Under the pieces are notes generated by a model. That model worked only from the letters and a program-made list of their open reading frames with translations, ran no database searches and was not told the origin of the DNA. From Methanobacteriota archaeon (GTDB taxonomy: Archaea > JAADCQ01 > Methanopyri > Methanopyrales > Methanopyraceae): a stretch of 64,000 nt of DNA. Positions 40,977 to 54,253 of the stretch are shown here, one piece after another; position 1 is the stretch's first letter, and each line of letters begins with the position of its first letter. Made by a program: the position numbers and the translations under genes. Where the stretch lies: assembly GCA_027064425.1 (NCBI GenBank), contig JAMOPO010000057.1, positions 129,352 through 193,351 of the forward strand, read 5' to 3'.

Positions 40977-42140
40977 GTGCGCGACCGGGAAGAGGCGGTT
41001 AATTACCTGTCGGAGCTCCTGGGCGTTGAGGAGTGGAAGGTCAGGGAGGCGCTGAAGCGCGGCACGATTCGGCGGGTTAAGCTGTCGTTCCCGGACTTCG
41101 AGTACTACCGCCTCGTCAGAGACTTCGGGGGTTACGAGCGGGGCACGCTGGTCGTTCCCGAGCACGATCTGGTCGTTCGAGGCTTCCCGAAGATCGAGCG
41201 GGCCCTGCTGCTCGAGCCGGCGCTGAGGACCCGGTTCGGCGACGGGGGACGCGTGGTCGTCGAGGAGAAGATGAACGGGCACAACGTGCGCCTGTTCGAG
41301 GTGGAGGGCGAGGTGTACGCCGCGACCCGAGGCGGGCTCATCTGCCCGTACACGACGCACCGCGTCCGGGAGCTCTGCGGTGAGGAGCTCCGGAGCTTCC
41401 TGGAGGACCATCCCGACACCGTGGTCTGCGCGGAGTTCGTGGGCCGCGAGAACCCGTACGTGTCCAAGGAGTACCCGGAGGCCCCGGACGTTGGTCTCTT
41501 CGTCTTCGACGTCCGCGACCTGGACGGGAGGTTTTGGTCCTTCGAGGAGAAGCGGGCCGTGGACGAGTACGGACTGGAGCGCGTCCGCTGCTTCGGCGAG
41601 TTCAGCGTCGAGGAGGCGGTCGAGGAGGTTCCACGCATCATCCGGGAGCTGGACCGGGAGGGTCGCGAGGGGGTCGTCATCAAGGACCCGGGTCGGGAGA
41701 AGCCCCCGCTGAAGTACACGACCCACTCCGCGCACGTGGAGGAGCTCGAGTGGGCGTTCACGTTCGCGTTCGATCTGGGTCGCGACTTCGTGCTCACGCG
41801 CACCATCCGGGAGGGCTTCCAGTCCTTCGAGTGGGAGGAGGACGAGGAGGAGCTGGAGCGCCGGGCGGCGGACGTCGGTCGGGCCATCGTGGAGGGGCTG
41901 AGGCGCGCGCTGGAGCGGATGAGGGACGGCGGCGGGGCCGTGGAGGAGGTCCCGCTCACGTTCGCCTCGATGCGGTGGTACCGCAGGTACGAGGAGTTCG
42001 TCAAGCATGTCACTGGGGGGACTCACACGCTCGAGATAGTCAGCGAGGACGATGATGGTAGGGTTAAGGCCGTGCTGAAGAAAAGGTACGTCAGGACTGA
42101 AGATAAGGTCAAAAGCATATTCGAGGAGGGGGTGCTCTAG
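40977..42140 (+). CDS. ATP-dependent RNA ligase, Rnl3 (Pab1020) family
   Basis: RGFPKIER, EEKMNGHNVR, TRGGLICPYTT, REGVVIK, LKYTT. Confidence 0.92.
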   Translation: MRDREEAVNYLSELLGVEEWKVREALKRGTIRRVKLSFPDFEYYRLVRDFGGYERGTLVVPEHDLVVRGFPKIERALLLEPALRTRFGDGGRVVVEEKMNGHNVRLFEVEGEVYAATRGGLICPYTTHRVRELCGEELRSFLEDHPDTVVCAEFVGRENPYVSKEYPEAPDVGLFVFDVRDLDGRFWSFEEKRAVDEYGLERVRCFGEFSVEEAVEEVPRIIRELDREGREGVVIKDPGREKPPLKYTTHSAHVEELEWAFTFAFDLGRDFVLTRTIREGFQSFEWEEDEEELERRAADVGRAIVEGLRRALERMRDGGGAVEEVPLTFASMRWYRRYEEFVKHVTGGTHTLEIVSEDDDGRVKAVLKKRYVRTEDKVKSIFEEGVL

Positions 42141-45741: not shown

Positions 45742-45917
45742 CGGGGCCGCCCCCACCCAACCCCACCACCCAAAAGGTCGGTAAAAAAGACGGCGCGTTA
45801 AAACCGGGCTGTCGAGTTCTCGGACCGTGACCTTGGTTCACGGAATGGGCACCCATTGTTCGATCGGATTCGAAAAGGCTAAAAGACCCGTCCCGGCCGG
45901 GTCCAGGGGGTTCGAGC

Positions 45918-46310
45918 ATGGAGTTCGAGGAGTACCTGGAGGAGTGGTTCAAGGGTGAGACCACCGAGGTGGGCATCTACATGGCGATGGCCATCGTCGC
46001 ACGAGAGCAGGGGTACCCGGACGTCGCCGAGCTGCTGGAGCAGGTGGCCATGGACGAGGCGCGGCACGCGGCCGCCGCAGCGCTGATCGCCGGCAAGGTC
46101 GAGAACAGCCTGGACGGGCTCATCGAGAAGCTCGAGGAGATGATTGAAGGGGAGAAGCAGGCCTACGAGACGCGGATGGACGAGGCCGACCACCACTCGG
46201 ACGAGCTGGACGACGAGGTGATCACCCTGCTGAAGGCCACCGCCTACGACGAGAAGCACCACAGGAAGATGCTTAAGGCGGCGCTGAAGCGGCTCAAGGA
46301 GGAGGCCTAA
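45918..46310 (+). CDS. Rubrerythrin/ferritin-like diiron protein
   Basis: GETTE..Y, DEARH, GEK, DEKHH. Confidence 0.85.
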   Translation: MEFEEYLEEWFKGETTEVGIYMAMAIVAREQGYPDVAELLEQVAMDEARHAAAAALIAGKVENSLDGLIEKLEEMIEGEKQAYETRMDEADHHSDELDDEVITLLKATAYDEKHHRKMLKAALKRLKEEA

Positions 46311-46455: not shown

Positions 46456-47220
46456 GTGAGCCGGTTGCGCTTCGCCGTCCTCTACTCTCACCCGTTCGGC
46501 GAGAGAATGTTGGCCAACCTGCTGAACGAGCCGGGCCACTGTCGGGCCTGCGGGCCCGCGTGCGATGGATGCAAGTACGGTGCGTACTCGCTCGCCGACT
46601 CCCTGGTTACCGCGGAGGAGCTACCCAAGCCGGAGGAGCTACCCCCGATGATCGAGGATCCAGGGGACTACCTCCCAAGACTACCGCCCGTCGACGTGCT
46701 GGTGGCGGTCGGACTGCACCCCGACCTCCTGATCGCGCTACCCGAGTCGTACGACGTCCGCTCCCTGATCGTTCCGGTCGAGGAGCCCGACTGGATGGAC
46801 CCGTGGACGGAGAGGAAGCTTCGCGAAGCGTGCGAGGAGAGCAACGTGGAGCTCACGGTGGCGAGACCGGGGTGCGACCTGGAGCCACCCGGCCCCGTGA
46901 CCGAGAGGTTCTGCAGGGCGGGCCTGATCGGCAGGCCTAAGCTGTCCCTGAGGGTGGAGGACGGCGTCGTAGTTGAGGCCCGGGTGGTGAGGTCGGCGCC
47001 GTGCGGCTGCACGTGGTTCGTGGCCAAGCGGCTGGTGGGCGTGGACGCGGAGCCGGGGGAGGTGAAGGCCGCCGTGTCCGAGGCGCACCACTCCTACCCG
47101 TGCACGGCCTCGATGAAGGTCGACGAGCGCGTCGGGGACACCCTGCTCCACGCGGCGGGCTGGCTGCACGTGAGGGCCGCCCTTCGGGCGCTGGAGGAGG
47201 CGGTAGGGGGCGGCGAGTGA
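46456..47220 (+). CDS. DUF166-family protein
   Basis: C..C...C..C, HPDL, RSAPCG, HHSYPCTASM. Confidence 0.75.
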   Translation: MSRLRFAVLYSHPFGERMLANLLNEPGHCRACGPACDGCKYGAYSLADSLVTAEELPKPEELPPMIEDPGDYLPRLPPVDVLVAVGLHPDLLIALPESYDVRSLIVPVEEPDWMDPWTERKLREACEESNVELTVARPGCDLEPPGPVTERFCRAGLIGRPKLSLRVEDGVVVEARVVRSAPCGCTWFVAKRLVGVDAEPGEVKAAVSEAHHSYPCTASMKVDERVGDTLLHAAGWLHVRAALRALEEAVGGGE

Positions 47221-47228
47221 AGACGTCC

Positions 47229-47654
47229 TCAGTCGCCGAGCACTCGCTCCAGCACCTCCCGGAACAGCCTCCACCTCCTCCCCCGGAGCCCGTACTCCCG
47301 GCGCACGTCGGCCTCGATGTCCTTGGCCTCGTAGCCGGCCGGGCGGTACGTGGAGACCAAATCGCCGTCGCGGCGCCCCGGCTTCAGCCTGATCTCGCCG
47401 CGACGTAGGAGGTCGTGGATGGCCTCCTTCACGTCCACGGAGAAGTACGGCGCCCTGAGCAGCATGCAGTACCCGTACTCGGTCCCCGTCAGCGGCCGGC
47501 CCGTCTCGCGCTCGAACTCCTCGTCGATCGAGTAGATCACGCGGAACAGGGATCGCTGGTCGATACCGGGCCGGAGCGCCACGAGGTACTTCACCAGCGG
47601 TCTCAGGTCCGCGTCCGTCGGCTCGACCGTGTGACATCTGCACCGGGCGTGCAA
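47229..47654 (-). CDS. Hypothetical protein, possibly SocA/Panacea-like winged helix
   Basis: LFRVIYSID...TGRPLTGTEY; TTG start after GGGGTGG. Confidence 0.5.
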   Translation of the reverse strand: MHARCRCHTVEPTDADLRPLVKYLVALRPGIDQRSLFRVIYSIDEEFERETGRPLTGTEYGYCMLLRAPYFSVDVKEAIHDLLRRGEIRLKPGRRDGDLVSTYRPAGYEAKDIEADVRREYGLRGRRWRLFREVLERVLGD

Positions 47655-47773
47655 GGTCGCGCCACCCCATCGGCCGAGATCTCCCGTTCGATGAAATTCG
47701 AAAACGTTATAATGGTACGCGGGCATGGTCGAGACTGGTCGAACGTTCGGTTGGATGCGAACGGGGGATGGGC

Positions 47774-49675
47774 ATGTCGGGAGAGTGCCCGTACGCGGAC
47801 GAGGCCGTCCGTGAGCTGGTCGAGCACGCCAAGAAGCTCAACGAGGAGATGCCGGAGATCGAGACCCCGCACATCCGGTGGCCCGTTCAGTTCCCGAAGT
47901 GCCCGTACGGTAAGCAGGGCGTGTGGTGCAACATCTGCGCGAACGGGCCCTGCAGGATCACCGAGAAGACGCCGCGCGGCGTGTGCGGAGCCACGGCGGA
48001 CGTGATCGTGGCCCGTAACTTCCTCCGGCACGTGGCCGCGGGGGCCGCGTGCTACGTTCACTGCCTGGAGAACGCCGCCCGGGCCCTGAAGTCCGTGGCG
48101 GATGAGGAGTCACCGTACGAGATCGCGGACGAGCGCGCCCTGCGGCACGCAGCCGAGGTCTACGGGCTGGACGCCTCGGGCAAGCCGGAGGACGTGGCGG
48201 AGGAGATCGCGGACTTCATCCTAGAGGACATTTACCGGCCGCGGCACGAGGAGTCGGAGGTGTTCAAGGCGGTCGTGCCGGACTGGCGAGTCGAGATGTA
48301 CGAGGAGCTCGGTCTCGTCCCGGGCGGCGCGAAGTCCGAGATTCACGACGCGCTGGTCAAGACGAGCACGAACCTGAACTCCGACCCGGAGGACATGCTC
48401 CTGCACGTGCTCCGGCTGGGCCTGATCACCGGACCCGTCTCCCTGTTCGGCGTGGAGACAATCAACGACATCCTGTTCGGGAGTCCGAGGATCACGGAGA
48501 CGGAGGGCGGCCCGGGGATCCTGGACCCGGACTACGTGAACATTATGGTCACCGGGCACCAGATGCCGCTGCTCAAGCACCTCATGGACGCGGCCGAGCG
48601 GCTGGAGGACGAGGCCAAGAGGGCCGGGGCCAAGGGCATCCGGATCATCGGGGCGACGTGCGTCGGCGACGACTTCGAGGCCCGCGCGGAGCACCTGCCG
48701 GACACGTACGCGGGGTTCGCGGGCAACAACTTCGCGACCGAGGCGCTGGCCGCGACGGGTCTCGTGGACGCGATCGTCAGCGAGTTCAACTGCACGTTCC
48801 CGGGCCTGAAGTTCTACGGTGAGAACGTCGAGCTGATCGCCGTGGACGACGTGGCCAAGGTGTGGGGAGCGGAGCTGATTCAGTGGGACCCGGAGCGCGC
48901 TGAGGAGGTGGCCGAGGAGGCCGTCAGAAGGGCCATCGAGGCGTTCAAGGAGCGCCGCTCGAAGCATGAGGATCGGATCATGCGGCCCGAGCACAGGCAC
49001 GAGAACGTGGTGGGCTTCGGCTACTTCTCGATCGAGGACGCGGTCGGCTGGGAGAAGGTGCTCGAGCTGATCGAGGAGGGCACCATCCGAGGCGTCTGCG
49101 CGATCGTGGGCTGCACGAACCTGGCCAGCGGCGGTCACAACGTGCCGGCCGCCACCCTGGCGAAGGAGATGATCAAGCGGGACATCCTCGTCCTCGGAGC
49201 CGGGTGCGTGAACGGAGCGCTGGCCAACGCCGGCCTGTTCAACCCCGAGGCGGCCGAGCTCGCCGGCGAGAACCTCCGGAAGGTCTGCGAGGAGCTCGGC
49301 ATCCCACCGGTGCTCCACTACGGGCCGTGCCTGGCGATCGGTAAGATCGAGCACCTGCTCTTCGAGATCGCCGAGATCCTGCGGGAGAAGACCGGCGAGG
49401 AGGTCGATATCCCGGACATCCCGGCCGTCGCGAGCGCGCCGCAGTGGCTCGAGGAGCAGGCGCTGGCGGACGCGTCCTCGGCCCTAGCGCTGGGCATCAC
49501 GCTGCACGTGAGCCCGGTGCCGCCCGTGACCGGCAGCAAGGTGGTCACCAAGACGCTGCTCGAGGACCTGCCGGAGCTGACCGGCGGCGAGCTGATCATC
49601 GAGACGGACATGGAGAAGGCCGCCGAGATCCTGGCCGAGAAGATCGAAGAGAAGCGGAAGCGCTTGGGTATCTGA
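47774..49675 (+). CDS. cooS: Atypical CooS-type CO dehydrogenase homolog
   Basis: CNICANGPC, GVCGA, GHQ, FNC, VGCTN, GAGC, YGPC. Confidence 0.9.
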   Translation: MSGECPYADEAVRELVEHAKKLNEEMPEIETPHIRWPVQFPKCPYGKQGVWCNICANGPCRITEKTPRGVCGATADVIVARNFLRHVAAGAACYVHCLENAARALKSVADEESPYEIADERALRHAAEVYGLDASGKPEDVAEEIADFILEDIYRPRHEESEVFKAVVPDWRVEMYEELGLVPGGAKSEIHDALVKTSTNLNSDPEDMLLHVLRLGLITGPVSLFGVETINDILFGSPRITETEGGPGILDPDYVNIMVTGHQMPLLKHLMDAAERLEDEAKRAGAKGIRIIGATCVGDDFEARAEHLPDTYAGFAGNNFATEALAATGLVDAIVSEFNCTFPGLKFYGENVELIAVDDVAKVWGAELIQWDPERAEEVAEEAVRRAIEAFKERRSKHEDRIMRPEHRHENVVGFGYFSIEDAVGWEKVLELIEEGTIRGVCAIVGCTNLASGGHNVPAATLAKEMIKRDILVLGAGCVNGALANAGLFNPEAAELAGENLRKVCEELGIPPVLHYGPCLAIGKIEHLLFEIAEILREKTGEEVDIPDIPAVASAPQWLEEQALADASSALALGITLHVSPVPPVTGSKVVTKTLLEDLPELTGGELIIETDMEKAAEILAEKIEEKRKRLGI

Positions 49676-49708
49676 TTCTCACCAATCTTTTCCGGGCAGG
49701 TGACTCTC

Positions 49709-50809
49709 ATGAGAGTGGAAACGCTCCGGGTCGCGACGGGTGAGCCCGGAGAGCTGAGGGTGGTCGCGGAGATCACGGAGGGGAAGGTCGTGAACGCCGA
49801 GGTGTGCTCCACGACCACGCCGCTCTCCTGGGAGACGCTGGTCCTCGAGAAGCCCGTCGAGTTCGCCGTGGTCGCCGCCGAGCGGGTGTGCCGCGGCTGC
49901 GACGCCAGCGCGGGGCTGGCCGTGGCGGAGGCGGCCGAGGACGCCCTGGGCGTGGACGTGCCGGACGACGCGAGGAGGGCCCGAGAGCTCCTGAACATGG
50001 CCAACGTGGTCAAGTCGCACGCCAGGACGCTGGCCGTGGCCGACCTGGGAGTGGAGGAGCCGGCCTACGAGCTCGTCCGCGCCGCCAAGGAGATCGTCAG
50101 GATGGTGGGCGGGAAGCCCCAGCACCCACCCGCCGTAACCGTGGGCGGCCTGGCGATCGAGCGGATCCCCGTGGAGCGGGTTGAGAGCGTGGCCAAGGAC
50201 GCGGTGGAGACCGCCGAGGAGGTGCTGGATGACGTGGAGTCGGCCGTAGACGACCTGCGAGAAGACCTCGAGGTGGAGCCGCGCGAGCGGCCGACCGAGC
50301 TCAGCGTCTCGGACACGTACAGGGGCGACGTGGACCGGGGCGCGATCGAGGTGCTGACGCCGGAGGAGTTCTACCGGATGAGGACCACCCGGAGGATCGC
50401 CACCAACCTCGTCGCCCAGTATGAGGGCAAGCCCGCCCTGGTCGGACCGGCCGCGAGGCGGGGCGGGGCGGAGCATCCGGTGGAGCACCACGTCGCCAGG
50501 GCCGAGGAGATCGTGAGCATGCTGGACGGGATCGCGGACGCCGCCTCAGGGCTGGACGGGTCCGGCGAGTACCGGACGGACGACGTGGAGGCGGGATCCG
50601 GCGAAGGGGCGGCCGCGGTGGAGGCCCCGGAGGGCGTCCTCGTCGTCCGGCTGCGGCTCAGGAACGGGCGCGTGGACGAGGCCGAGATGATCACTCCTTC
50701 CAACTTCAAGGCGGCCCTCGCGGGCGACCTCCTGCCCGGACTGACGGTCGAGGAGGTCGAGACGGTCCTGCGCTCGCTCGGCCTCTCCGGCAGGTGCCTC
50801 ACGCACTGA
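49709..50809 (+). CDS. FrhA-like NiFe-hydrogenase large-subunit homolog with a degenerate active site
   Basis: ERVCRGC, VGGKPQHP...VGG, EAPEG, ITPSNF, C-terminal SGRCLTH. Confidence 0.8.
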   Translation: MRVETLRVATGEPGELRVVAEITEGKVVNAEVCSTTTPLSWETLVLEKPVEFAVVAAERVCRGCDASAGLAVAEAAEDALGVDVPDDARRARELLNMANVVKSHARTLAVADLGVEEPAYELVRAAKEIVRMVGGKPQHPPAVTVGGLAIERIPVERVESVAKDAVETAEEVLDDVESAVDDLREDLEVEPRERPTELSVSDTYRGDVDRGAIEVLTPEEFYRMRTTRRIATNLVAQYEGKPALVGPAARRGGAEHPVEHHVARAEEIVSMLDGIADAASGLDGSGEYRTDDVEAGSGEGAAAVEAPEGVLVVRLRLRNGRVDEAEMITPSNFKAALAGDLLPGLTVEEVETVLRSLGLSGRCLTH

Positions 50810-50821
50810 GGGGGGCTCGAG

Positions 50822-51538
50822 ATGAGGGTAGCCCTGCTCTCCCTCATGTCCTGCGGATCCTGCGCGGAGAACCTCGAGATCGTGTGCCAGAGTGAGGGCC
50901 ACGAGCTGGTATGGTCGAGTCTGAGGGACGACGGTGAAGTGCCGGACGTGGACGTCCTGTTCGTGGACGGGGCCGTGGACTTCGCCGACGCTGACGCGCG
51001 GGAGCGGCTCGAGCGGGCGGTCTCGTCGGCGGACGTGGTCGTGTCGCTGGGATCCTGCGCCGCCACCGGTGGCTTTGAGCGGCACGCGATCGGCATGCGA
51101 GAGCCCGCCAGGTACCACTTCACGGTGTTCCCGGCCGCCAAGTTCGCCGACACGGACTACGCCATCATCGGCTGCCCTCCCACGGAGGACGCCATCGCCT
51201 CCTTCCTGGAGGCGCTGGAGGAGGGCGACGACGACAGGCTCGAGCCGTACCGGGTCCTGTCGGGGGACTTCCACGGGCTGGACCCGAACCTGCCGTCCCC
51301 CGTCCGTGGCCCGGAGGCGACGGTGGAGGACGTGCTGCTGACCTCCAACAAGGATCTCTGCCTGGGCTGCGACCTGGACGTCGTCGAGCGAGAGCTATTC
51401 TGCACGGGATGCGGAGCGTGCGCCGCCTCGTGCCCCGCCTGGGCCATAGAGATCGACGAGAAGCCCGAGATCCGCGAGGACAGGTGCATCAGGTGCGGAA
51501 CGTGCTTCGCGACCTGCCCGAGGTCGTTCCGAGCTTGA
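50822..51538 (+). CDS. FrhG-like Fe-S subunit
   Basis: SCGSC, GSCAATGG, GCPP, two CxxCxxCxxxCP motifs. Confidence 0.85.
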   Translation: MRVALLSLMSCGSCAENLEIVCQSEGHELVWSSLRDDGEVPDVDVLFVDGAVDFADADARERLERAVSSADVVVSLGSCAATGGFERHAIGMREPARYHFTVFPAAKFADTDYAIIGCPPTEDAIASFLEALEEGDDDRLEPYRVLSGDFHGLDPNLPSPVRGPEATVEDVLLTSNKDLCLGCDLDVVERELFCTGCGACAASCPAWAIEIDEKPEIREDRCIRCGTCFATCPRSFRA

Positions 51539-51557
51539 GCCACCGGTGGTGCGCGCG

Positions 51558-52460
51558 ATGCGCGGGTTGCTGAGAAAGATCCTCGGGAAGAAAGACCGGC
51601 GGGATGGTAAGATGAAGCTCGACCCCGAGCTCGTGGGTGAGTACCGCGGCGCGTACCTGGCTCGAGCCACCGAGGAGCGCTTCCGAGAGGCCGGCCAGGA
51701 CGGCGGCACCGTCACCGCGCTCCTGGCGCACGCGCTCGAGGAGGGTTACATCGAGGCCGCGGTCGTGTCGACGACGGGCTCCGACCCGTGGAGGCCGAGG
51801 CCGACCGTGGCCACGAGCGTGGAGGAGCTGCTCGAGGCGGCCGGGTCGAAGTACTCCATCTCGCCGAACCTGAGCGCGCTGGAGACGGCCGTCGGGTCCC
51901 ACGACTCGGTGGCCGTGGTCGGCACACCGTGCCAGGTCAGCGCCGTCAGGAAGCTGGAGTCGCACGCGTACGGCGTGGCCGACGTCGCGGAGCGCGTGAA
52001 GCTGCTCATCGGCCTCTTCTGCTCCGAGAACCTGACCTACAAGGGTCTGACCGAGTTACTAGAGAAGGAGATCGAGGCCGACCTCTCCAGCGTGGAGCGC
52101 ATGGACATCACGGCGGGTAAGTTCACCGTCGTCACCTCCGACGGCGAGGAGCGATCGGTTTCCGTCTCAGAGCTGCGCAGGTACGCCAACGAGGCGTGCG
52201 GCTTCTGCACTGATTTAACGGCAGAGGACGCGGACGTGAGCGTTGGGTCCACGGGCGCTCCAGACGGTTGGAACGTCGTTCTGGTGCGGACCGGCCGGGG
52301 CGAGAGGATCCTCCAGTCCGCTGTGGACGCCGAGGTGCTGGAGGTAAGGGACGTGGACGAGGGGGACCCGGCGACCCTCGAGCGGCTGGCGAGCGACAAG
52401 AGGGAGCGCGCCGAGAGCGCCAGGTGCGCGGTGTGGCGACCCTACCCGACCTCCCCCTAG
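51558..52460 (+). CDS. FrhB-family F420-binding subunit
   Basis: GQDGGTVT, AAGSKY, VGTPCQ, IGLFCSEN, CGFCTD, DVSVGS.GAPDGW. Confidence 0.9.
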   Translation: MRGLLRKILGKKDRRDGKMKLDPELVGEYRGAYLARATEERFREAGQDGGTVTALLAHALEEGYIEAAVVSTTGSDPWRPRPTVATSVEELLEAAGSKYSISPNLSALETAVGSHDSVAVVGTPCQVSAVRKLESHAYGVADVAERVKLLIGLFCSENLTYKGLTELLEKEIEADLSSVERMDITAGKFTVVTSDGEERSVSVSELRRYANEACGFCTDLTAEDADVSVGSTGAPDGWNVVLVRTGRGERILQSAVDAEVLEVRDVDEGDPATLERLASDKRERAESARCAVWRPYPTSP

Positions 52461-52491
52461 CGTTGCACCGCCGCTCGCGGGGGCGGTCGTC

Positions 52492-52968
52492 GTGGAAATC
52501 GGTCCGAGGGAGTTCCTCCGAGCGTTCCTGTACTCCTACGTCGTAACGTCCGCGCAGCTGCTGGGTAGCAAGGCGCCGGCCCTGCGGCGGGCCGTGTGCA
52601 GGAACGCCGCCCGGGCCCTACTCCGGGAGCACCCGGAGCTGGAGGACCTCGAGCCCGTTGAGATGGTGAAGGCGGTGGCCGAGAGCCTGCTGGGGGCCAG
52701 CGTGAGCGTCGATGAGGACGCGTCCGGAGGAGTGGCTGTCAGGATCGAGGGATGCAGGATCTGCCCGAGGGACCTCATCGAGGAGTTCGTCCGTGATCAT
52801 CCCGAGTTGAAGGACCCGATCTTCGGGTACAACGTCTGCGCGTTCACGACCCTCATTGAGGAGGTCTTCCGAGCCCTGGGGGAGGAAGTTGAACTGAAGC
52901 ACGAGCCCGTGGAGCGCGGCCGCTGTCGCGTGATCGTGAAGGCGAGCGGCAATAGGGCCGACGTTTGA
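52492..52968 (+). CDS. Small V4R/output-domain-like Cys protein
   Basis: GCRIC...VCAF...RCRVIV pattern. Confidence 0.6.
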   Translation: MEIGPREFLRAFLYSYVVTSAQLLGSKAPALRRAVCRNAARALLREHPELEDLEPVEMVKAVAESLLGASVSVDEDASGGVAVRIEGCRICPRDLIEEFVRDHPELKDPIFGYNVCAFTTLIEEVFRALGEEVELKHEPVERGRCRVIVKASGNRADV

Positions 52969-53017
52969 ACCTGAGGATGGCCCGCGGATGGTCGTCCCCT
53001 GCGCAGGGGAGGGCGAG

Positions 53018-53758
53018 ATGAGGCTGGCCATCGACGTTCCCAAGGATGTGGCCAGGGCGTTGGACAACGAGACCCGGCGCGAGATCCTTGAGCTGCTCAG
53101 AAAGCGCGGTCCCATGACCCTGTCCGACATAGCCCGGGAGCTGGGGCTGTCGAAATCGACGGTGCACCACCACCTGCGGGAGCTCCGGCGGGCCGGCCTG
53201 GTGGACGTGGTCAAGGAGGACCGGGGCGCGCCGCTGCCCAGGCGGTACTACGGGCTGGTGCGCAGGCTGGTGAAGCTGTCGAGACCGAGGCTCGAGGACG
53301 CGGTGGAGTACGTCGCGCGAGCGCTGGACAGGGAGGACGACCCGTCCACCTCCCTCCCGCTGGCCATAGCCGCCGCCTACCGTGCGGTGCTGGAGTCGCT
53401 GGGCGTTGACGCGAGGGAGGTCCTGTACGAGCTGGGCGAGGAGGTGGGTAAACGGCTGGCCAGGCGCTGTGAGGAGGGCTTGAAGGGGTTGGAACGGGTC
53501 CTATCCTCCGTGGCCGACTCGGTGCGGGTCCGCCGGGATGGGGAGCGCGTCACCGTCGAGGTGGAGGGGTGCCGGGAGTGCTCGGACCTTCCTTACGGCC
53601 CCGCCTGTCCGCTGGAGGCCGGCATCGTGGCTGGGTTCCTGACGGAGCTGACCGGCCGGCGCTACCGGGCTGAAGAGGTCGAGTGCTGTGGAGAGGGAGC
53701 GGAGAGGTGCGTGTTCGTGGCGGAGCCCGCTAGCGACGAAGAACGCCCCAAGCCCTAG
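53018..53758 (+). CDS. ArsR-type HTH regulator with a V4R domain
   Basis: ALDNETRREILELL, STVHHHL..L; CREC, ACPLEAG, ECCGEG.ERCVF. Confidence 0.9.
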   Translation: MRLAIDVPKDVARALDNETRREILELLRKRGPMTLSDIARELGLSKSTVHHHLRELRRAGLVDVVKEDRGAPLPRRYYGLVRRLVKLSRPRLEDAVEYVARALDREDDPSTSLPLAIAAAYRAVLESLGVDAREVLYELGEEVGKRLARRCEEGLKGLERVLSSVADSVRVRRDGERVTVEVEGCRECSDLPYGPACPLEAGIVAGFLTELTGRRYRAEEVECCGEGAERCVFVAEPASDEERPKP

Positions 53759-54071
53759 TCGCCTTGGATACTCCCTCAACCCACGCCACCAGGGCCAGCG
53801 TGGCGGCGATCTCCTCGTCCGTCACCCCGGCCACGTTCCTGGCCGTCTCGGCGATCAGCTCCACCCGGCGCTCGTCTCCCGAGGCCGCGGCCAAGGCCAG
53901 CGCGATCAGGTGCTTCGTTTTGTCGTCCAGCGGGGACTCCTTCCAGGCCACCTCGTGGAGTCGCTCGATGACGCCCGCGTACTCGTCTCCCAGCATCTCC
54001 TCGGCGTACTTCACGGCGGTTAGGCCCTTCTCATCCTCCTCCTTCGCGGGCTCACCCGGCCTCCGGGACAA
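53730..54071 (-). CDS. Carboxymuconolactone decarboxylase (AhpD-like) family protein, no CxxC
   Basis: SPLDDKTKHLIALAL, GVTDEEI; start uncertain. Confidence 0.75.
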   Translation of the reverse strand: MSRRPGEPAKEEDEKGLTAVKYAEEMLGDEYAGVIERLHEVAWKESPLDDKTKHLIALALAAASGDERRVELIAETARNVAGVTDEEIAATLALVAWVEGVSKATRAWGVLRR

Positions 54072-54136
54072 CGTGACGCCCCCGGACGCACACCGGAGGC
54101 CCTGAGGATAAACGCGGAGCGTGTTCGACGCGAGTC

Positions 54137-54150
54137 GAAAGCCTTTAAGT
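54137..54150 (+). promoter_or_regulatory. BRE/TATA upstream of thrS
   Basis: GAAAGCCTTTAAGT. Confidence 0.6.
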
Positions 54151-54253
54151 CGCATCGAATCGCGCCGCGGCCCGCCGGGCCGGCCCCGCGGGGCGGGCCG
54201 ATGATGCTATCAGCCGGGTGTCGGGAGCCGACCCGGGGCCCGGTCGGGTGAGG

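Follow-up and report, generated by a model that had tools for sequence, protein, structure and literature searches.

The subject here is a run of six genes at positions 47768-53758 of a 64,000-nt stretch (the window) on contig C57 of a genome, 1.54 Mb in size and 99% complete, from a heat-loving methanogen of the Methanopyrus genus. The frames are co-oriented and closely packed, with intergenic gaps of 33, 12, about 8, 31 and 19 nt. They begin with cooS, for the catalytic subunit of a nickel-dependent carbon monoxide dehydrogenase (Ni-CODH), followed by homologues of the genes for subunits A, G and B of the F420-reducing [NiFe]-hydrogenase, whose products are here called A′, G′ and B′, by a gene for a protein of 158 residues and by one for a regulator with an ArsR-type helix-turn-helix (HTH) and a V4R domain. 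The original prediction, made from the letters of the window, had listed cooS, the three frh-like genes and the ArsR-V4R gene as co-oriented, and the frames and family searches bear it out. The centrepiece is A′, a homologue of a hydrogenase large subunit in which the NiFe site is altered and, as judged from relatives, maintained in that state.

47768-49675, plus strand: cooS, Ni-CODH catalytic subunit (TIGR01702, 723.4 bits, cut-off 478)
49709-50809 (alternative GTG start 49700), plus strand: frhA-like gene, for A′ (TIGR03295, 124.7 bits, cut-off 392.5)
50822-51538, plus strand: frhG-like gene, for G′, small subunit with ferredoxin domain (TIGR03294, 141 bits, cut-off 245.5)
51546-52460, plus strand: frhB-like gene, for B′, subunit for flavin adenine dinucleotide (FAD) and F420 (PRK09325, 316.1, cut-off 269; TIGR03289, 259.5, cut-off 331.5)
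52492-52968, plus strand: gene for the 158-residue protein (V4R/TRAPP/H-NOX-like fold as a lead only; no family match)
52988-53758, plus strand: gene for the ArsR-HTH and V4R regulator, MsvR-like (HTH_5 64.3 bits, V4R 62.1 bits)

The A′-G′-B′ module is an extra paralogue beside the canonical FruAGB of the genome, since FruA, FruG and FruB are encoded on contig C3; FrhD is on C15 and CdhA on C52. A′, G′ and B′ all fall below their equivalog cut-offs, and the TIGR03295 score of A′ compares with 514.9 for the FruA of the same genome. Weak matches to hidden Markov models of NuoD and NuoB are also found among the window proteins.

The motifs of A′ were read by residue-level alignment to Methanothermobacter marburgensis FrhA (4ci0_A/3zfs_A) and in a 13-row alignment. 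RICGVC of FrhA is aligned with RVCRGC, so that both cysteines are retained; QEGHAEL is aligned with EPGELRV, and EGH is gone; EAPRG is aligned with EAPEG, placing Glu at the canopy Arg; and DPCLSCATH is aligned with GLSGRCLTH, in which Ser stands for the third ligand cysteine (Cys3) and Asp-Pro is lost. Three of the four metal-ligand cysteines are thus present, the first L2 position being Ser, and that Ser stands at the selenocysteine position of the genome's own FruA, which has the selenocysteine form (contig C3, 32371-36558; in-frame TGA at the Cys3 position, DIU-ASC-AAH). A′ ends at His369, where normal large subunits are cleaved, and canonical rows run 10-30 residues further; its frame has no internal stop and so no in-frame TGA, as had been noted. 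The same four motif readings of the original prediction are all upheld by the alignment, and with an incomplete ligand set, Arg changed to Glu and EGH lost, the evidence supports its view of A′ as something other than a large subunit of the standard, H2-activating kind. All eight family members, at 53-99% identity, have the altered motifs without variation, and the same eight members of the Methanopyrus family all have C36, C64, C67 and C366, of which Cys36 is extra and new.

The prediction had also pointed to the absence of an adjacent maturation protease. The absence is real and proves uninformative, since the canonical fru operon has no frhD between A and G either, its frhD lying on C15; the telling point is rather that A′ has no C-terminal extension to cleave. 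The A′ start is likely the ATG at 49709, which is preceded by AGGTGA and is also where the sequence P0001 begins. As for the T-tract to which attention had been drawn near 49675-49709, it is just TTTT (49688-49691), and a terminator there was rejected, there being four T only and these not conserved in relatives.

Pfam NiFeSe_Hases covers residues 45-107 of A′ only. The protein is modelled with the FrhA large-subunit fold: the AlphaFold2 model has a predicted local distance difference test (pLDDT) value of 95.3, and Foldseek returns the FrhA chains 9r51_A, 6qgr_A and 3zfs_A with probability 1.00 and TMq 0.88-0.92. By its profile the A′ family is distinct from other FrhA-like proteins. Against 1.84 billion cluster representatives a single cluster scored 649 bits and the next best 119 bits, and among the next 50 proteins EAPRG was printed in 44 and EAPEG in 0. 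One FrhA-like representative from elsewhere, P0018, has a first motif degraded to RICATD, with one Cys, and reads EGSTG at the place of EAPRG; it retains PCSHCATH intact as well as a C-terminal extension, and would represent another, independent type of altered FrhA.

Neutral decay of the A gene was one of the outcomes that the prediction had named as fatal to its case. The ratio of nonsynonymous to synonymous substitution rates (dN/dS) of A′ is 0.20-0.41 in the six pairs computed (cooS 0.03-0.16; B′ 0.17-0.39), and the A′ frames of relatives are intact at 363-369 residues. With dN/dS far below 1 and frames intact, A′ is, on these comparisons, altered, conserved and under purifying selection rather than decaying; on the same grounds its being a pseudogene was rejected.

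The window's GTDB class consists of 6 genomes, and the GTDB phylum holds just those 6. The order cooS, A′, G′, B′ and small protein is found in all 6 Methanopyrus-genus genomes and in three loci of metagenome-assembled genomes (L007-L009). Of 40 Methanococci genomes, 14 have an A′ of full length (at least 57% identity), and these same 14 are the ones with a close CooS (at least 95%); they are Methanocaldococcus or Methanotorris genomes with the two genes at adjacent coordinates, and the order cooS-A′-G′-B′ holds in 10 of the 10 Methanococci loci examined. Synteny of cooS with the module in relatives, on which the earlier proposal had staked itself, is therefore found in two archaeal classes. 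In the Methanocaldococcus-like genome G028, a CooS 58% identical to that of the window is followed by a 298-residue A′ (TIGR03295 83.1 bits), G′ and B′.

Like that of Methanopyrus, the Methanococcales A′ (298 residues, model pLDDT 94.6) has Glu for Arg (EGGEG/ESPEG) and the x-R-C ending, and it too is without a C-terminal extension. Its L2 CxxC is intact, of the L1 cysteines it has the first alone, and its first 40 residues are absent, so that two ligand positions out of four, and no more, are shared by the two lineages. That they keep different subsets of cysteines is the main argument, drawn from the alignment, against a NiFe-type site conserved across both. The B tree places the canonical FruB proteins of the two lineages with one another (100/99) and separates them from the cooS-linked copies. 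A separate case is locus L061 (G084:C1:58808-62650), from the Methanocaldococcus genus, where a diverged A′-like sequence is fused in frame to a G′-like one in a 400-residue frame; there is no cooS within 1.5 kb of the fusion and no close CooS in that genome.

The electron-transfer parts of the module are well preserved, as the original prediction had held for the Fe-S motifs of FrhG and the FAD/F420 motifs of FrhB. Fourteen cysteines of G′ (C11, C14, C79, C118, C180, C183, C194, C197, C200, C204, C222, C225, C228 and C232) are unchanged in all 11 rows from the two archaeal classes, including the four of the N-terminal, proximal-cluster domain; the individual cysteines are presumably distributed over proximal, medial and distal [4Fe-4S] clusters according to the usual scheme. 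B′ has QDGG and C129, C159, C218 and C221, which are invariant and common to canonical FruB, matches the FrhB_FdhB N and C domains of Pfam with 102.4 and 154.8 bits and aligns over its full length with solved FrhB (E 1.5e-63). B′ is, on its score, a paralogue and not FrhB proper, since the TIGR03289 equivalog score of 259.5 falls below 331.5.

The CooS of the window had been called atypical, and this can now be specified. The ligands of its C-cluster are kept and invariant (H264, C298, C342, C449, C480, C521), as are the B-cluster cysteines (C54, C57, C62, C73). Alignment to 6t7j_B shows invariant Tyr96 and Gln564 in place of the acid-base His and Lys, and in the D-cluster region there is C45 only, the second Cys being replaced by Trp53 (Tyr in G028). 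Clade C of the Ni-CODHs is defined by just this change of acid-base His/Lys to Tyr/Gln with a complete C-cluster, and its group C-3 has a single D-cluster Cys and is reported, in the main text of that study, from Methanocaldococcus and Methanotorris only (PMC6344411). The window CooS carries, by these residues, the clade C signature with a D-cluster of the group C-3 type, and the CODHs of M. kandleri and Methanocaldococcus have been placed at the base of clade C and described as 'unlinked' (PMC3328121).

CooS is far more conserved than its partners, with 88-93% identity within Methanopyrus as compared with 54-77% for A′, and 95-98% as compared with 57-96% in Methanocaldococcus/Methanotorris, which points to very strong constraint or recent exchange of cooS among genomes. 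In G094 (C1:645063-647117) the CooS match comes in two overlapping pieces (query 1-300 and 243-628) within one frame of 702 residues, which suggests an internal duplication or an assembly artefact.

The surroundings of the run contain oxygen-related genes and copies of the palindromic box TTCG-N8-CGAA, listed here in order of position.

45859-45874, no strand assigned: box TTCGATCGGATTCGAA, 44 nt before the rbr start, abutting an A-rich stretch resembling a B recognition element (BRE) and TATA box
45918-46310, plus strand: rubrerythrin gene (rbr; Pfam Rubrerythrin 53.1 bits), a putative co-regulated neighbour
46456-47220, plus strand: DUF166 gene (Pfam DUF166 227.4 bits), adjoining cooS here and in the G039 locus
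47687-47702, no strand assigned: box TTCGATGAAATTCGAA, 4 nt upstream of the TATA-like TTATAAT (47707-47713)
47746-47761, no strand assigned: second cooS box, 6 nt before the cooS ATG
53730-54155, minus strand: CMD/AhpD-like gene, convergent with the regulator gene (Pfam CMD 53.2 bits)
54124-54139, no strand assigned: box where the CMD gene has its 5′ end, directly downstream of a minus-strand TTAAAG (the true CMD start is uncertain)

The box of the archaeal redox regulator MsvR is TTCGTAN4TACGAA, and Methanothermobacter MsvR represses the F420H2 oxidase gene fpaA (PMC3729527). The regulator at the end of the operon matches NCBIfam MsvR (NF053755) with 103.7 bits over profile positions 6-235 of 236, the cut-off being 220. 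The window contains five exact copies of TTCG-N8-CGAA where 0.84 would be expected, five being reached in 1 of 100 shuffles; one copy each belongs to the 5′ regions of rbr and the CMD gene and two to that of cooS. The 113-nt region upstream of cooS contains TTATAAT and both cooS boxes. Four related loci have seven exact boxes between them, each at a distance of 36-76 nt upstream from rbr, cooS or the regulator gene; the rbr box is exact and 61-64 nt upstream in all four. L007 has the same arrangement of box and TATA at cooS, with the second of its two boxes 36 nt upstream of cooS, L009 has an exact box before the regulator gene, and boxes with one mismatch were read by eye before cooS in L022, L023 and L009. 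With MsvR-type boxes at the operon, at rbr and at the AhpD-like gene, and an MsvR-like regulator at the operon end, the operon may be counted as a member of a stress response and is probably under redox or oxygen-stress control. The rubrerythrin gene is syntenic in L007, L008, L009, L022 and L023. Around the G028 cluster lie genes for FprA-like, Isf-like, AfpA, NikR-like and Hcp proteins. At a locus of a third lineage (G039; L045, C46, 3599-9771) ArsR-V4R, DUF166 and CooS are followed by two genes like cytochrome bd oxidase subunit I; the CooS there has the same signature with the D-cluster Cys pair kept, and there are no Frh-like genes at the locus. Oxygen-related neighbours are thus found in three lineages, and DUF166 accompanies this type of CooS in lineages with and without the Frh-like module.

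The fifth exact box of the window (41176-41191) is inside a 387-residue frame (40977-42140) and is probably a chance match. A conserved gene of 141-165 residues is divergent from cooS (47229-47726, minus strand, likely 47229-47654). Its 165-residue frame has no meaningful Pfam match up to E 10; an Atlas feature search gives SocA/Panacea antitoxin-like domains with scores of 0.94-0.95, and the Atlas record starts at residue 25, which would free the cooS promoter region. A scan for sigma-70 promoters and intrinsic terminators gave no promoter-like and two terminator-like sites, with 3.0 of the latter expected, and is uninformative for an archaeon. The 158-residue protein had been described as V4R-like, and its gene is kept in all full Methanopyrus loci. 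Leads in favour are a weak BLASTP match to the V4R part of the neighbouring regulator (E 0.029) and structural neighbours in the Atlas among ArsR C-terminal domains, HNOB and TRAPP, with template modelling scores of 0.55-0.63. The domain assignment itself is not borne out, as a Pfam search up to E 10 gave no meaningful match, V4R included.

The reading preferred here, at about an even chance (roughly 0.5), is that CooS, A′, G′ and B′ would form one four-subunit oxidoreductase linking the C-cluster of CooS to F420 under redox-stress control. The module would descend from an F420-reducing [NiFe]-hydrogenase, with A′ as the structural core that holds the small subunit, G′ carrying a chain of three Fe-S clusters and B′ carrying an Fe-S cluster, FAD and the F420 site. 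Because CooS is without a D-cluster, electrons from its B-cluster would need to be handed to a bound Fe-S partner, and G′ and B′ suggest themselves because they are the sole Fe-S and flavin proteins of the operon and their own input, H2 at A′, is gone. By analogy, G′ and B′ may take the role that CooF and a FAD/NAD oxidoreductase (FNOR) have with bacterial clade C enzymes, or that the zeta subunit has in the CODH of Candidatus Ethanoperedens. Flow would most likely be from the substrate (CO, if the altered site is still active) to CooS, G′, B′ and so F420H2, and the F420H2 or the electrons could serve for removal of O2 or peroxide when oxygen-sensitive hydrogenases fail. The complex, its coupling to F420, its substrate, the direction of flow and the regulation are all inferred from the genes. 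For A′ the prediction had offered a scaffold or a sensor, and because the two lineages keep different Cys subsets a scaffold is favoured.

Several points count against such a complex as drawn. Clade C has been judged, in a survey of 2026, likely to be low or inactive in CO/CO2 conversion (PMC13056359), and because it is without the acid-base His and Lys, CO may not be the substrate at all. A′ and the proximal-cluster domain of G′ have been retained though they are dispensable for a mere wire to B′, and since A′ and all four proximal-cluster cysteines are kept, the A′/G′ core may do more than act as a scaffold; the A′ of Methanopyrus moreover keeps three canonical cysteines together with the new, invariant Cys36. 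The A tree joins the two A′ groups (89 in the Shimodaira-Hasegawa-like approximate likelihood ratio test, SH-aLRT) on long branches and is not decisive, whether the cooS-linked B′ proteins of the two lineages are sisters is left undecided by the B tree (80/80), and in the loci of M. kandleri type (L022, L023) the cooS boxes are one-mismatch versions only.

The flow could also run in the opposite direction, with F420H2 oxidised at B′ and an oxidant (nitric oxide, hydroxylamine, O2, peroxide or another small molecule) reduced at the CooS C-cluster, the complex then being a detoxifying reductase similar in principle to Fsr or Hcp. This is unlikely, if to be taken seriously. Tyr and Gln stand in for the very pair that serves CO/CO2 acid-base chemistry (by the definition in PMC6344411), the poor activity with CO attributed to clade C (PMC13056359) would cease to be a difficulty, and the stress-gene neighbours and MsvR-type boxes would be natural company, as would Hcp, a relative of CooS, in the G028 locus. 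There is also the precedent of Fsr, in which an FrhB-like F420H2 oxidase feeds a detoxifying site (B′ matches 7np8_A). However, the six C-cluster ligands are fully kept, as in enzymes that oxidise CO, a clade C CODH is required for growth of T. kivui on CO (PMC13056359), and the G039 CooS precedes an O2 reductase, as would suit a CooS that donates electrons better than one that is itself the terminal reductase.

A different departure from the four-subunit CO:F420 scheme gives A′ a remodelled metal centre, built from three Cys with Cys36 or Ser and adjoining the intact proximal cluster, that is itself catalytic or a redox or gas sensor, so that there would be two active sites; this is quite improbable. 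What speaks for it is the invariance of C36, C64, C67 and C366 in all eight members and of the four proximal-cluster cysteines of G′ in both lineages, the purifying selection on A′, and its retention in two classes, even as a fusion to G′ in G084. The lineages have no ligand set in common, though, the Methanococcales A′ being without Cys36 and the second L1 Cys and the Methanopyrus A′ without the first L2 Cys; the canopy Arg, EGH and Asp-Pro are lost; and dN/dS of A′ is 2-12 times that of CooS (0.325 as against 0.028 between L007 and L008). A specific form of the idea, in which A′ and the G′ proximal cluster make up a new non-NiFe metal or thiol site cooperating with the CooS C-cluster in a two-site F420-dependent enzyme, such as one reducing gases or oxidants or splitting electrons, is given equally little chance.

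That CooS and the Frh-like module are mere neighbours with separate functions, G′ and B′ acting for instance as an F420:ferredoxin-type shuttle, is likewise quite improbable. It draws on the fact that the link is known from genes alone, on the A-G fusion of G084, which has no cooS nearby, and on G039, with its CooS of this type and no Frh-like genes. Set against these are the exact co-occurrence at adjacent coordinates in 14 of 14 Methanococci genomes, with the order kept in the 10 loci examined, the same gene order in a second archaeal class, gaps of just 33, 12, about 8 and 31 nt, and the loss of the module's own electron input. A working hydrogenase coupled to CooS, with CO-dependent H2 evolution or H2:F420 activity, is hardly credible, because although the source annotations give Ni/Fe hydrogenase subunits and a 2015 review reads the M. 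jannaschii cluster as an operon of CODH and hydrogenase and suggests CO-dependent H2 formation (PMC4652020), the ligand set is incomplete in both lineages with Arg changed to Glu, no EGH and no C-terminal extension, A′ is far under the FrhA cut-off, and canonical, selenocysteine-containing FruAGB and FrhD are present elsewhere in the genome.

The four-subunit F420-linked scheme offers a concrete hypothesis for the cultivable Methanopyrus kandleri and Methanocaldococcus jannaschii, namely that the partner of their CooS is an F420 module on a dead hydrogenase chassis, controlled by a redox-stress regulator. For the M. jannaschii cluster, whose tags we take to be MJ0725-MJ0728, a literature search under these tags returned no papers. 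The motif analysis argues against the hydrogenase reading of that cluster (PMC4652020), and what clade C Ni-CODHs do in the cell is acknowledged to be an open question (PMC13056359). In the literature searched there is no description of a degenerate A subunit, of F420 coupling of a CooS-type enzyme or of MsvR-type boxes at the operon, keeping in mind that the supplementary tables of PMC6344411 and PMC13056359 may list neighbours; in the text of these papers, F420 and FrhB have no occurrence in the former, nor F420, Frh and Methanopyrus in the latter. If the scheme holds, it could point to a route by which strict anaerobes of hydrothermal vents produce reduced F420, or dispose of oxidants, once their hydrogenases are impaired. 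Were the two-site version true, this would be a previously unknown F420-dependent enzyme of the deepest-branching methanogens, going beyond a simple CO:F420 wire.

Among known systems the nearest relatives of the module are FrhABG and FruABG of group 3a (PDB 4omf, 3zfs, 6qgr, 9r51), with the same A-G-B order, the same fold of A, the same Fe-S cysteines of G and the same QDGG and Cys set of B. Unlike these, A′ has Ser for Cys3 or selenocysteine and Glu for the canopy Arg and is without EGH or a C-terminal extension, and its module is preceded by cooS and has no need of a frhD partner. The regulator is like MsvR of Methanothermobacter and Methanosarcina in joining an ArsR-type HTH to a V4R domain with cysteines, with TTCG-N8-CGAA boxes at BRE/TATA and, for the window's regulator, putative oxidative-stress targets (PMC3729527). 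The likeness has its limits, as it scores 103.7 against 220 bits, its gene is at the operon end and not divergent, and its binding is predicted; MsvR homologues are described as limited to a subset of methanogens, Methanopyrus having no mention in that paper.

There is a solved structure of a CODH joined to an FrhB-like F420 reductase, and the enzyme reduces F420. It is the alpha2-epsilon2-zeta2 enzyme of Candidatus Ethanoperedens thermophilum (PMC11493965, 8riu), whose zeta subunit (8riu_B) is matched by B′ at E 8e-52. There too, a Ni-CODH is encoded with an FrhB-like FAD/F420 subunit and ferredoxin-type [4Fe-4S] clusters. That enzyme, however, consists of a clade A CdhA and epsilon with the ferredoxin domain fused to the reductase, whereas in the window the CooS-type subunit is of clade C and the ferredoxin domain would sit, by analogy, on a separate homologue of the hydrogenase small subunit bound to a relic large subunit; activity has been shown for the Ethanoperedens enzyme and is predicted for that of the window.

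Bacterial clade C cooS genes have Fe-S proteins (72%) and NAD(P)/FAD oxidoreductases (71%) as neighbours (PMC13056359), and their clusters as described combine the same CooS signature with an Fe-S protein, a flavin hydride-carrier reductase and a transcription regulator (PMC6344411, PMC13056359). The window differs in having F420 rather than NAD(P), a hydrogenase-derived chassis rather than CooF and FNOR, and an incomplete D-cluster. NuoD and NuoB of complex I, FpoD and the Mbx/Ehr-type proteins are hydrogenase-derived pairs without the metal ligands, in which the proximal cluster is kept and serves electron transfer. Those modules come from the membrane-bound group 4 and bind quinone or other acceptors, whereas the present one is of the soluble group 3a, has no link to the membrane and goes together with CooS; it would, if the reading is right, be a soluble, group 3a-derived parallel to the reuse of the hydrogenase core in complex I. 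The parts are thus each of known kinds, and what is new is that a clade C CooS is combined with a soluble hydrogenase chassis whose active site is dead.

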